Source of the DNA: a virus
Taxonomy: Duplodnaviria; Heunggongvirae; Uroviricota; Caudoviricetes
Virus record (IMG/VR): IMGVR_UViG_3300028888_000113
Length of the DNA: 11,640 nucleotides
Strand: one strand, 5' to 3'
The position numbers were made by a program, and so were the translations under genes. Below, piece after piece: positions 1,404 to 9,380 of this stretch. Positions within the stretch are counted from its first letter, which is position 1; every line of letters begins with the position of its first letter. The notes beneath the pieces are model-generated. The model ran no database searches. It saw nothing but the letters and a program-made list of their open reading frames with translations, and had not been told where the DNA came from.

Positions 1404-1444
1404 AGCGGAATACGGGAATCGAACCCGCCTCCCAGGCTTGGGAA
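1404..1444 (-). pseudogene. 3' half of tRNA-Gly(CCC): displaced fragment at the prophage attachment site
   Basis: Minus strand reads TTCCCAA (anticodon loop, CCC) GCCTG GGAG GCGGG TTCGATT CCCGT ATTCCGC T. The 5' anticodon strand (expected CAGGC), D arm and 5' acceptor strand are absent and replaced by AT-rich sequence. Confidence 0.9.
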
Positions 1445-1466
1445 ATTTAAGCAAAATCTGAACGGT

Positions 1467-1532: not shown

Positions 1533-1877
1533 CTATTTGTTTAAGTCAATAATCCTTTTGAGTACATCTGCAAGTTCGATACTGAGAGCGATACGTTCTT
1601 TCTCGACCTCAGAGTTGTCCGTAGTTTCTTCTTCTCCACGTAATGGAGAGCCAATACCACAACAGAGATAATCAGTACTTAATTCTGGCCAGTGTTCACA
1701 CACTCGCTCAATAATCATACCAGGCACATCACCATTGGTGTTGCGCCACATACTCTGTAACTTTGCCTTACTTATACCAAGAGCTTCAAGTTCTTTGTCA
1801 TAAGGCTTGACTCCAACTGCCTCTAAGCAGTCTTGGAGTCTTTTTTTTATCCCTGATTCAACATTCTCTTTCATCAT
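1533..1877 (-). CDS. Putative prophage repressor (short HTH protein, no S24 peptidase domain)
   Basis: 114 aa, divergent from cro/xis-like genes. The segment IERVCEHWPELSTDYLCCGIGSP resembles the 'I...YPELN.DWLLTG.G.M' signature of CI-like HTH proteins. Start may be 1877 or 1874. Confidence 0.7.
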   Translation of the reverse strand: MMKENVESGIKKRLQDCLEAVGVKPYDKELEALGISKAKLQSMWRNTNGDVPGMIIERVCEHWPELSTDYLCCGIGSPLRGEEETTDNSEVEKERIALSIELADVLKRIIDLNK

Positions 1878-1932: not shown

Positions 1933-2017
1933 TAATTTTGGCCAAAAGTAGATTTTACGCTAAATTTCTTTTGCGCATATTAGTTTTTTAACTACCTTTG
2001 CAATTGAATATTAGTTT
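1933..2017. promoter_or_regulatory. Candidate operators in the switch region
   Basis: 18-bp near-palindrome TAATTTTGGCCAAAAGTA (1933-1950; each half is itself a TAnnTTTG box) and a 10-bp direct repeat ATATTAGTTT at 1977-1986 and 2008-2017 flanking the rightward -7 box. Confidence 0.45.
1970..2000 (+). promoter_or_regulatory. Rightward (early/lytic) promoter
   Basis: TTTG (1970-1973), 19 nt spacer, TACCTTTG (1993-2000): full Bacteroidota -33/-7 consensus. Confidence 0.75.
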
Positions 2018-2289: not shown

Positions 2290-2520
2290 ATGGACGGAGT
2301 TAAAATCGCGAAGGTTGACACAACAAAGCTCTGGCTTTCAAGCCGTGAAGCTGCAAAGTACCTCGGAGTCAGTAAAGACTGGTTCGATAAAAGACGCGAG
2401 GATGGTACTCTGCATTATTCCAAGGTCGGGAACACCATCTTCTACATCAAGAAGGAAGTTGATGACCTGATCAGGAATAATGCTGTCTCTGGGAAACAAA
2501 TATTCAGAAAAGTAATTTGA
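2290..2520 (+). CDS. Excisionase-like winged HTH (HTH_17/MerR-like) protein
   Basis: WLSSREAAKYLGVSKDWFDKRREDGTLHYSKVGNTIFYIKKEVDDLI matches the typical excisionase pattern. Confidence 0.88.
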   Translation: MDGVKIAKVDTTKLWLSSREAAKYLGVSKDWFDKRREDGTLHYSKVGNTIFYIKKEVDDLIRNNAVSGKQIFRKVI

Positions 2521-2613
2521 CATAACGCATAATAAAGTACATCATAGGCTTTACAGAACGTCGTGAGACATTCGCCTCAACTCAGATTAACAAAGCAATA
2601 GTTTCATAGGCTT

Positions 2614-2648
2614 GCAATGCCCGCTGTGACAGTTCGCATTGCTTTTTT
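2614..2648 (+). terminator. Intrinsic terminator upstream of the tRNA pair
   Basis: GCAATGC (2614-2620) / GCATTGC (2636-2642) with an inner CTG-TGA-CAG hairpin, followed by TTTTTT. Confidence 0.7.
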
Positions 2649-2653
2649 CAAAA

Positions 2654-2726
2654 GGATGAATAGCTCAGTTGGTAGAGCGTCGGTCTCCAAAACCGAAGGT
2701 CGTAGGTCCGAGTCCTGCTTCATCTG
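2654..2726 (+). tRNA. trnW: tRNA-Trp(CCA), prophage-encoded
   Basis: Acceptor GGATGAA/TTCATCT, D stem GCTC/GAGC, anticodon stem TCGGT/ACCGA with loop CTCCAAA, variable loop AGGTC, T stem GTAGG/CCTGC, discriminator G. The T loop is the atypical TCCGAGT; CCA is not encoded. Confidence 0.93.
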
Positions 2727-2756
2727 CAAGCCAATTTTTCAGCAGTGCCGATGATG

Positions 2757-2869
2757 TCTGTGTGGCGAACAGAAGGAGGCCGGGATTTGCTACGTGGCTA
2801 ACAGTCGCATGGCTTTTGAGGATTCGATGTTTGAAAATGCTTTTATCCTCGCGATGATGACGGCCACGT
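2757..2869 (+). other. Structured non-coding segment between the two tRNA-like genes
   Basis: Hairpin TCTGT-GTGGCGA-ACAGA (2757-2773). Long interrupted hairpin ACGTGGCT(2792-2799)/GGCCACGT(2862-2869), GTCGC/GCGAT and GAGGAT/ATCCTC. Confidence 0.55.
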
Positions 2870-3033
2870 TTGTTCTTTGACTTATTGATACAACAAAGAT
2901 ACAAAAGAAGTTAGGATGATATAGATTCATCAAGTTTTTAACCCAATATAAGCCCTGAAAAGGACAGGGCGGAGTGAAAATCTCCACGAACGAGTTATAC
3001 CGAATTGCAAATTGCCTCCATCTGGAGGCAAAC

Positions 3034-3137
3034 CTCAGAATAGCTCAGTGGTAGAGCGTCGGCAGATGATAACTGTTGTATAGCCATAATTGTAATTATA
3101 TAGCCGAAGGCCGGGGGTCCGAATCCCTCTTCTGAGA
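3034..3137 (+). ncRNA. tRNA-like RNA with a 39-nt insert in place of the anticodon loop
   Basis: Acceptor CTCAGAA/TTCTGAG (7 perfect bp), D stem GCTC/GAGC, anticodon stem TCGGC(3059-3063)/GCCGA(3103-3107), variable loop AGGCC, T stem GGGGG/CCCTC with loop TCCGAAT, discriminator A. Insert 3064-3102 = AGATGATAACTGTTGTATAGCCATAATTGTAATTATATA. Confidence 0.85.
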
Positions 3138-3155
3138 CTCAAAACCAAAAAGAAT

Positions 3156-3326
3156 ATGCTAATGGAGATTCCTATTTCAAAGACAGATTATGAGAAGATG
3201 ATGTCACTCATAGATAAAGCCTGCACAATCATCAAGTCAGGCAATCCTTCGCCAAAGGAGTACAATGTGGCAAGGCAGCTATCTCAGTTGAAGAAGAAAA
3301 TAGATAAGAAGAATGGCAAAGGCTGA
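3156..3326 (+). CDS. Hypothetical 56-aa basic protein (not in the ORF track)
   Basis: MLMEIPISKTDYEKMMSLIDKACTIIKSGNPSPKEYNVARQLSQLKKKIDKKNGKG. A-rich upstream region (AAAACCAAAAAGAAT); overlaps the next ORF by 14 nt. Confidence 0.7.
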   Translation: MLMEIPISKTDYEKMMSLIDKACTIIKSGNPSPKEYNVARQLSQLKKKIDKKNGKG

Positions 3327-3531
3327 GTTTCATTGTTGCATTGACTGTGCAAGGGCGAAGATATTCCAATACGACTTCGATCCGATTATTGCAGAGTGCT
3401 TTGACGGTCAGCGTTATGTCGCGCGTTATCCTGTATCTTGCAATGATTTCAAAGGATTGGAAACATTGGATAAAAAGGAAAAGAGGTTTATCCGTTGCAT
3501 AGAGAACAGAGAGAAGAAAATTGGAATTTAA
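3313..3531 (+). CDS. Hypothetical Cys-rich small protein
   Basis: 72 aa with CCIDC...C...C, a possible metal-binding site; in operon order. Confidence 0.7.
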   Translation: MAKAEFHCCIDCARAKIFQYDFDPIIAECFDGQRYVARYPVSCNDFKGLETLDKKEKRFIRCIENREKKIGI

Positions 3532-4302: not shown

Positions 4303-5016
4303 ATGCTTCTACCGACAATGACACATGAGGAAGAGCGTTCTGAGATCCTGAAAGATCTGCCGAACGTTGAGCGATGGGATCAACATCGTTGGAAAGACTA
4401 CCGCAGAATGTCTCTCAAGATGAAAGATTTTCCAAAGTATGTCTTCACCGAGTATGTCAGTCCAAGGAAGAATCGTTGGCTTGTAACCACGAAGTTCTGG
4501 GGTAAGGATGATTTCTGTTCCACCTTTGGAGTGTTGCAGATTTTGAACGGATTGGTCTTGCATCAGGTGTTCTGTTCACTATATGAAGAAAAGTTCTCTA
4601 CGATCTGCACATTCATACCACACTTCTTCGACAGATACCGACAGTACAACAAGCTCGACATCAAGGGCATTCCACTTATAAAACAGATGCTCAAAGATGA
4701 CTGCTCTTTCAATTTGGATCGGACGCAGGAAATATCCGGTCGTAAAGAACTCGACAAAGAGAATAACATACATTGTTGTATGCGTCAGGGAGTAGGACTT
4801 GGATATGAACTTGGGTACAAACACTATCTGATAAAGACATTTGTGACATACGATATGGCGCGTGGCCGTCAGAAGAAAATATTTGAGGCTACACGCGATG
4901 ATTTTTCAAGGAAACTCACTGATAAACCACAGCCAATACAGAGGTTCGATCAGCCGTCTTTCCTTCTCTCAGAAGAAGAAATTAAAAATGCCATTCGCAA
5001 GATTGGCAAAATATAG
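4303..5016 (+). CDS. Hypothetical protein
   Basis: 237-aa open frame starting 3 nt after the previous stop; contains PHFFDRYRQY and IKTFVTYDM motifs. No confident family. Confidence 0.82.
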   Translation: MLLPTMTHEEERSEILKDLPNVERWDQHRWKDYRRMSLKMKDFPKYVFTEYVSPRKNRWLVTTKFWGKDDFCSTFGVLQILNGLVLHQVFCSLYEEKFSTICTFIPHFFDRYRQYNKLDIKGIPLIKQMLKDDCSFNLDRTQEISGRKELDKENNIHCCMRQGVGLGYELGYKHYLIKTFVTYDMARGRQKKIFEATRDDFSRKLTDKPQPIQRFDQPSFLLSEEEIKNAIRKIGKI

Positions 5017-5041
5017 TATTAACATAAATAAAAAACAGCTT

Positions 5042-5473
5042 ATGCAAAGAGTATTAGGCCAAGACATCAAGGATTTGGAAGAGAGGAAAAATTTCCTCAT
5101 TGACAATGCTGATGGTGTTGAAGAAATGGACTACCACAAGTCCTATGAGTCTGAGGAACTTGAGCAGATGAAGACGGAGTTTGCAAACAAGCATATCCGT
5201 ATCGCAGCTCTCGAAGAACAGATCTCTGATTTCAAGGAAGAAATCAACAAGGAACTAAAGCCTCTCAAGGAGGAAGTGAAGAATCTCCGTGAAGATCTCA
5301 AGTCAAAGGGCCGCACGGTTCATGAGAAGGTCTATCGTTTCCTTGATGAAGAGGAACGAATGGTTGGCTTCTACAACTCAGAGGGAATGCTTGTTTCCTC
5401 ACGTCCCGCACGTCGTGACGAATTACAGAAGACAGTTTTCGCAGACTTGCGAAAAGAAGGTACTAACAATTAA
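5042..5473 (+). CDS. Phage hypothetical coiled-coil protein
   Basis: Start moved from 4862 (overlapping the previous gene) to ATG 5042 after A-rich AAATAAAAAACAGCTT. 143 aa with a central coiled coil and a C-terminal GFYNSEGMLVSSRPAR motif. Confidence 0.82.
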   Translation: MQRVLGQDIKDLEERKNFLIDNADGVEEMDYHKSYESEELEQMKTEFANKHIRIAALEEQISDFKEEINKELKPLKEEVKNLREDLKSKGRTVHEKVYRFLDEEERMVGFYNSEGMLVSSRPARRDELQKTVFADLRKEGTNN

Positions 5474-8714: not shown

Positions 8715-9380
8715 ATGGATGCGTATTACTCTCGAAGTGAGGTCTCTAACTCAGACCTCACTTCCCTCAAACTCCAGTTGCATCCTCAGTTGGATTTCGT
8801 CAAGCCGAAAGACAAGAAGAAAGCGTTTCATCTTGGCACCCTCGTTGATGGACTTGTCACAGAGCCAAAGAACTGCAATCACTTCCGTTATACCGTCGGC
8901 GACGAAAAGTACACCAAAGATGAATGGGAGTGGGGAAAGAAGCAACTCGAAAAGCTCAGAAAAGCATCTGCCAAAGATCCTTTCCTTGCTTATGTACTTA
9001 CAAATGCAATAGGTCAGGAGGTCTTTATAAATCCTTGTCAGCACTTTGATGTGGGATGCTATAGTTTCGACTTGGCTACACGCTGCAAGTTCGACTGGCA
9101 TCTGGGATTGTTTGGTGGCGACCTCAAGACGGTTACTGCATCTACACAGGACCAGTTTGAAGCTGCTGTTGATTTCTTCGATTGGGATAGGAGCCGTGCA
9201 TTTTACATGGATCTCACTCATTCCCTTGATCCTCGTCTTGGCAATCAGGATTTTATCTATGGAATCTCAAAGACTACAAATAAAGTTTTCTTTAAGAAGA
9301 TAGTCCGAGGTGACGAAACGTATCTCCGAGGAAAAGAGAAATATGAGGAACTTGCGTTCAAAAAATGGTTATTCACGTAG
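8715..9380 (+). CDS. PD-(D/E)XK exonuclease, RecE/exonuclease VIII-like (DUF3799 type)
   Basis: YYSRSEVSNSDL, AFHLGTLVDGLVTEP, RCKFDW and GGDLKT catalytic D...DxK motifs; downstream of recT. Confidence 0.85.
   Translation: MDAYYSRSEVSNSDLTSLKLQLHPQLDFVKPKDKKKAFHLGTLVDGLVTEPKNCNHFRYTVGDEKYTKDEWEWGKKQLEKLRKASAKDPFLAYVLTNAIGQEVFINPCQHFDVGCYSFDLATRCKFDWHLGLFGGDLKTVTASTQDQFEAAVDFFDWDRSRAFYMDLTHSLDPRLGNQDFIYGISKTTNKVFFKKIVRGDETYLRGKEKYEELAFKKWLFT

Follow-up and report, generated by a model that had tools for sequence, protein, structure and literature searches.

The closest described systems are two small RNAs of enterobacterial phages. The C4 RNA of P1 and P7 occludes a ribosome-binding site with its loops after processing by RNase P (PMC5320573), and the CI RNA of P4, whose targets seqA and seqC lie upstream and downstream of it on the same transcript, is processed from a phage transcript (PMC4825925). 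A sequence-only reading of the window considered here, which is 11,640 nt of a Caudoviricetes record (IMG/VR IMGVR_UViG_3300028888_000113), had proposed an immunity system of the same logic, with a tRNA-like RNA that pairs with repeats in its own leader and with a site downstream. Our analysis of the window and of related phages shows that the RNA is a core small-RNA gene of temperate phages, located in the early rightward operon and preceded by a conserved cassette of hairpins and a boxA-like motif. We put at about 0.5 the probability that it acts in trans as an antisense RNA: encoded in the early lytic operon and displayed on a tRNA scaffold, it would block translation starts.

The window begins with host genes (cytidine deaminase, glucosaminidase) and continues into the left arm of a temperate phage with a divergent repressor/cro-like layout, the cro-like gene coming after the gene in the repressor position. 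A non-coding stretch at 2520-3155 is followed by an early operon that leads to RecT-like, SNF2 and SSB-like genes. The features are as follows.

1533-1877, minus strand: gene in the repressor position, with no family match itself; its positional equivalent in L069 is HTH_3 plus Peptidase_S24
1993-2000, plus strand: TAnnTTTG promoter -7 element, likely the early rightward promoter
2290-2520, plus strand: excisionase-type HTH_17 gene, the upstream anchor of the RNA cassette
2654-2727, plus strand: tRNA-Trp(CCA) in a variable slot, which holds other tRNAs or tRNA-like RNAs in relatives
2728-2871, plus strand: optional two-hairpin cassette with GTGGC repeats (2762-2773, 2794-2805), not the conserved target of the RNA
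2872-2888, plus strand: boxA-like motif, found in 25/29 loci at about 180-200 nt 5' of the RNA
2915-2987, plus strand: conserved hairpin (2915-2931) and twin hairpins (2952-2987)
3012-3031, plus strand: conserved GC-rich hairpin directly 5' of the RNA
3034-3138, plus strand: tRNA-shaped non-decoding RNA with a 7-bp acceptor stem, D arm, 5-bp anticodon stem, T arm and discriminator A, and no encoded CCA
3064-3102, plus strand: display arm of 39 nt in place of the anticodon loop, weakly paired and variable among relatives
3083-3088, plus strand: invariant GCCATA core, the complement of U-AUG-GC
3156-3326, plus strand: gene of 54-56 aa after the RNA, containing the 3261-3271 site
5003-5044, plus strand: candidate two-segment target formed by the last part of a 237-aa gene and the bases that precede the AUG of a 143-aa gene (phrog_12688), strong in six relatives and weak in the window

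Relatives were drawn from metagenomes and IMG/VR; one homolog is named Bacteroidales by its source. The tRNA-shaped RNA is carried by 29 loci with 25 distinct arms, and in most of them a gene of 54-58 aa lies directly downstream. L058 is the same phage as that of the window (96-98% identity), and 49.5 kb of this phage were examined; G005 is the complete genome of a relative (75.6 kb). We did not count L043, L019, or archaeal or eukaryotic matches as family members, and discarded L008-L012, which a motif scan had returned and which are ordinary tRNA-Gly genes. A scan of genome contigs gave no Bacteroidota member of the family. At the left boundary of the phage lies the 3' half only of a tRNA-Gly-like gene (about 1404-1445, minus strand), likely an attachment scar; in relatives the same left side holds integrase genes or other host genes. 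The phage of the window also encodes a reverse transcriptase (RVT_1, L091:8796-9980).

The RNA at 3034-3138 matches the Rfam tRNA model with 53.6 bits and a 39-nt loop, and is not called by ARAGORN. Measured against RF00005, it has the stems of the cloverleaf and lacks the 7-nt anticodon loop with U33 and the conserved identity elements, having the 39-nt arm instead. We rejected an intron-containing tRNA, as the ARAGORN calls for homologous RNAs are inconsistent (Gly, Tyr) and the bases that follow the anticodon stem vary among relatives and lack U33. Across the relatives, 92% of the cells of the cloverleaf are paired, a value that falls to 41-47% in slid controls. Two-sided changes occur at 13 of the 21 pairs, including all seven acceptor pairs, a type of count that related sequences inflate. 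Judged from these alignments, the cloverleaf is under selection. The acceptor stem changes freely, which argues against an aminoacylation identity, and the RNA keeps the shape of a tRNA, not its aminoacylation or decoding identity.

The body of the RNA resembles the tRNA-Trp of the same phage, as a decaying copy of that tRNA would, but the compensatory changes show selection on the fold. A companion idea takes the conserved AUG of the complement to belong to a small gene on the opposite strand. The minus strand of the window does offer a good start and a 30-aa frame; however, the antisense frames run from 3 to 93 aa with unrelated sequences, and no leftward promoter is conserved. Taken as one, this pair of explanations is very unlikely.

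Rfam gave no family beyond tRNA for the RNA or its relatives, and our literature searches found no description of it; it is a real and apparently undescribed family. The more distant L090, LoVEphage and BS-TP2 gave no member of it. Other RNAs of similar shape were seen in these and further genomes. In the early region of BS-TP2, a cultured Bacteroides phage, lie tRNA-like RNAs that are not annotated, have extended arms and lack the GCCATA core (L115:2983-3098, 3375-3457, 9193-9301), and LoVEphage has a tRNA annotated as undetermined with a long insert (L114:10791-10993); the two phages are tractable models for the broad class of tRNA-like RNAs with odd arms. In a divergent phage the family member is followed, about 330 nt farther downstream, by another tRNA-like RNA whose long arm is rich in A/U (L017:928-1028). 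The uncounted L043 holds a 110-nt tRNA-shaped RNA with GCCATG in a long arm (L043:752-861), in a neighbourhood apparently made up of sugar-pathway genes and free of phage homologs.

The display arm is 30-45 nt long among relatives, rich in A/U and G-U, weakly folded and without a fixed loop. Within it, GCCATA is present in 29/29 loci, 17 of which came from searches with protein anchors or with a pattern that did not include GCCATA. The base 5' of GCC in the core is U or A only, which fits GCA/GCU. At positions -3 (A), -2 (U), -1 (U), +6 (A) and +7 (A), the complement of the arm has the modal base of 82 predicted Met-Ala starts. Bacteroidetes, which do without Shine-Dalgarno use, favour A at -3, a known determinant (PMC6847099). 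The 8-mers upstream in the arm complements score like those of real starts (2.58 versus 1.85, with all ATGGC sites at -1.0), and they exceed positional shuffles with p=0.0002, or 0.018 with -1 fixed, in sequences that are related and not independent. Intramolecular pairing could be an alternative reason for the conservation of the A/U-rich 3' flank of the core. Presumed resemblances of the peptides of the complement to restriction-modification proteins, and a presumed likeness to helix 41 of 16S rRNA and to CRISPR repeats, are not claimed.

An invariant core could also serve as bait. As a decoy, the RNA would be a tRNA mimic whose GCCAUA tip, read as GCC (Gly), CCA (Trp) or CAU (Met), soaks up a host defence protein that cuts or binds tRNAs. 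The core is invariant though no universal target was found, the RNA sits among real tRNAs in the early operon, and the first slot holds an unrelated tRNA-like RNA that likewise displays GCCAU, in a loop on a compensated stem (L018, L031, L061, L088, L089, G005). We nevertheless hold a decoy to be unlikely: the geometry of the loop is not conserved, predicted loops being 3-6 nt or largely open, the equivalent of U33 is A in two lineages, and the flanks of the core follow the statistics of start sites.

Three or four hairpins and the boxA-like motif precede the RNA; the motif at 2872-2888 is a putative boxA. The upstream cassette at 2872-3000 resembles the DUF2693 RNA (RF02956) with 32.7 bits and E=0.003 (27-32 bits in two relatives), far below the cut-off of 81.3 bits, and was not assigned to it. 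Farther upstream, 2543-2648 holds a pair of related hairpin motifs, of which the second is joined to a terminator-like stem; they are kept in most relatives and are a possible put-like antitermination element. In the slot of the tRNA-Trp, relatives carry no fewer than six further tRNA-like RNAs, which measure 80-187 nt and have odd arms (L018:2197-2277, L089:1561-1639, L057:6647-6733, L014:944-1042, L005:443-629, L036:3873-3975); in one slot class GGCCAU caps a stem of 8 bp, and L089 shows compensatory changes.

The RNA stands at a fixed position just before the first downstream gene, about 190 nt after the boxA-like motif. This position and the free covariation of the acceptor stem would suit a processing or antitermination element, whose tRNA body directs RNase P/Z cuts in the early transcript in the manner of a t-element, together with the boxA-like cassette, the arm being incidental or protein-binding. 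Such an element leaves the invariant hexamer and its start-like flanks unexplained, and we consider it quite improbable.

The leader repeats on which the immunity proposal was built belong to the cassette at 2728-2871, and all of the motifs quoted in support of it lie where they were placed. Each half of the cassette carries the motif CGATGATG; the sequence is near-invariant in 8 loci, with no Rfam match and no compensatory changes among them. The exposure claimed for the repeats held in the minimum-free-energy fold, with GTGGCGA of copy 1 in a loop and copy 2 as the 5' arm of the 2792-2869 stem, but ACAGA of copy 1 is paired in the hairpin and GTGGC of copy 2 is fully paired (7.4 expected pairs). 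Likewise, the repeats are complementary to segments of the insert in the correct order, but not above chance: against 200 dinucleotide-shuffled inserts the best leader hybrid has p=0.15. Hybrid energies are -11.9 kcal/mol for copy 1, -14.0 for copy 2, -8.2 for the third site and -12.7 for the 3261 site, and after opening costs the net values are +4.2, +0.4, -1.7 and -2.0 kcal/mol. When 2654-3330 is folded, the expected number of insert pairs is 0.0 for the leader copies and 2.2 for the 3261 site. The two-copy motif, which was defined after the fact, occurs in 0/300 shuffled leaders.

Comparison of loci bears on the same question. The cassette is present in 8/29 loci and missing in 21/29, its slot in other phages being filled by tRNA-Arg or other structured RNAs, and L057/L058, which are the same phage and have an arm identical to that of the window, lack it. 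While inserts change, the cassette stays nearly the same: L088, G005 and L014 have the cassette and no CUGUU, and L031 has a pair-breaking change in one copy. RNAs from leader-bearing and leaderless loci pair with it equally (-14.0 versus -13.8; -12.2 versus -11.6). The sequence-only reading had itself named energies no better than shuffled controls, and a lack of covariation between insert and motif, as results that would speak against it, and for the leader both were found. The GTGGC repeats are an exchangeable cassette and not immunity targets. The proposed downstream target at 3261-3271 fared better in one respect, in that the 3139-3330 region beats shuffled inserts (p=0.02); against this, the site is coding (EYNVA), its 11-mer is private to this phage, and its net energy is small.

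As a role for the family, an immunity RNA that pairs with the GTGGC repeats and the 3261 site to stop read-through is largely refuted, and we regard it as extremely unlikely. It retains the ordered complementarity, the result for the downstream region, a somewhat higher frequency of CUGUU in loci with the cassette (5/8 versus 5/21, Fisher p=0.08), and 10-13 nt of pairing with copy 1 by the L031 and L042 RNAs. Opposed to these are the leader energies, the loss of the cassette even within the same phage, and the missing covariation. A role in immunity is doubtful on other grounds as well: the RNA lies in the rightward early operon of a phage with a divergent repressor/cro-like layout, and no Bacteroidota-type TAnnTTTG promoter occurs on the plus strand between 2001 and 3034 from which it could be expressed internally. 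What survives in kind is the idea of a tRNA body co-opted to display antisense segments, as the shape is kept and the arm is weakly structured and antisense-looking; the leader targets named for it do not.

We searched elsewhere for targets of the arm and obtained two candidates by sequence complementarity, the junction at 5003-5044 and the start of the tape-measure gene. Among 15 gene starts, only that of the 143-aa gene passed for cognate-specific pairing (p=0.0006); no cognate covariation was found at the SNF2, 429-aa and 72-aa Met-Ala starts. The junction ranked top of 232 aligned windows and was the best two-segment site within 4-13 kb in 7 loci (L063, L067, L044, G003, L031, L020, L059), with shuffle p<=0.003 in six; these seven loci are related, and after de-duplication an antisense control window scores as well. 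About 7-11 pairs form at the end of the upstream gene and 9-11 pairs end at the next AUG, with a spacer of 18-21 nt looped out. Three changes keep pairing (L020, L059, L067), and the net energy is -7 to -9 kcal/mol in four loci and -0.6 in L059. The cognate pairs are not always the best within the subgroup, and in G003 the same energy is found at chance sites across 49 kb. In the window both sides of the junction have drifted and the site is only median; it is also weak in the third scaffold type. A second window at 4522-4581 gave no common pairing register.

In the phage of the window the tape-measure start (L094:16888, minus strand) pairs at all 16 target nucleotides, with a 2-nt bulge in the RNA. 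It is the best of 65 starts in the same phage (-23.9 versus -17.1 kcal/mol; p=0.0175 allowing for the 65 starts), with a net energy of about -7 kcal/mol. TATGGC stands at 8/8 of the tape-measure starts retrieved. G002, G003 and G005 show weak cognate pairing, and the mean z of -1.1 across the family is close to that of a random set of such starts (-0.9). The L020 arm is complementary to 20 bases in a row at the RecT start of a different phage (L068:11780-11825), a match with a chance of about 1% per RNA and therefore unremarkable over 23 RNAs. The complete G005 genome contains no strong target of its own RNA, so a target in the host or in a rival element is possible. Wider searches gave little: the best contiguous arm complements in 850 kb barely exceed shuffles, a viral scan with the complement of one class matched the RNA gene only, and plasmid searches with two arm complements returned only noise at E=6. 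No single target is common to the whole family.

In the antisense mechanism that we favour, transcription would start from the early promoter near 1993-2000, and host RNase P and 3' trimming would release a stable RNA, with which the intact cloverleaf is compatible. The arm would act in trans by pairing with an mRNA on or close to a start codon of the form (A)UU-AUG-GC(A/U), and its variable 5' half would add specificity. Pairing over the start codon would block translation initiation, possibly with polarity on recombination and replication genes. Bacteroidota initiate without a Shine-Dalgarno sequence, which makes the region of the start codon the natural place for such a block. Targets may differ by lineage, being the 237-aa/143-aa junction in one subgroup, the tape-measure start here, or genes of the host or of rival phages. 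A bolder version, which we offer tentatively and hold to be less probable, is a natural tRNA-scaffold delivery of antisense guides, in which a fixed anti-AUG-GC seed is joined to a variable specificity segment and each lineage silences the start of a different gene (its own late or recombination genes, a rival phage, host defence) in a phylum without Shine-Dalgarno recognition.

With canonical and phage tRNAs (RF00005), including the tRNA-Trp of this phage, the RNA shares the D, T, acceptor and anticodon stems and the sequence of the body; it differs in the arm of 30-45 nt that replaces the 7-nt loop, in an acceptor identity that is not conserved, and in that decoding is impossible. Like C4, it is a small phage RNA within a longer transcript, with a presumed end of the tRNA-processing type. 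C4 pairs with short targets and occludes a ribosome-binding site, and the RNA may work like that of P1. Two short segments that covary with a cognate target near a start, as in C4, were seen at 5003-5044 in six relatives and not in the window or the third scaffold type. Where C4 has three stem-loops with a'/b', the RNA has a full cloverleaf with one long arm; no conserved cognate target was found for it, and it is placed early in the lytic programme of a phage that has a repressor-type switch. The Rfam C4 family gave no match at E<=1 in the window and none at E<=0.5 in ten relatives. P4 CI is similar in that it is processed from a phage transcript, as the RNA would be, and in the proposed pairing of short segments, but the flanking upstream (seqA-type) and downstream (seqC-type) targets are not conserved here, and no internal promoter for expression in the lysogen was found. 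With no motif match and no conserved flanks of the seqA/seqC type, the RNA falls outside both the C4 and the CI family. If the antisense reading is true, RNase P-type antisense control in phages extends from the enterobacterial C4 and CI to Bacteroidota, where it would use a true tRNA body and a seed directed at the start codon, and phage tRNA-like RNAs without an anticodon gain a first concrete, testable mechanism. The feature that distinguishes the RNA from these systems is its invariant anti-start-codon core.
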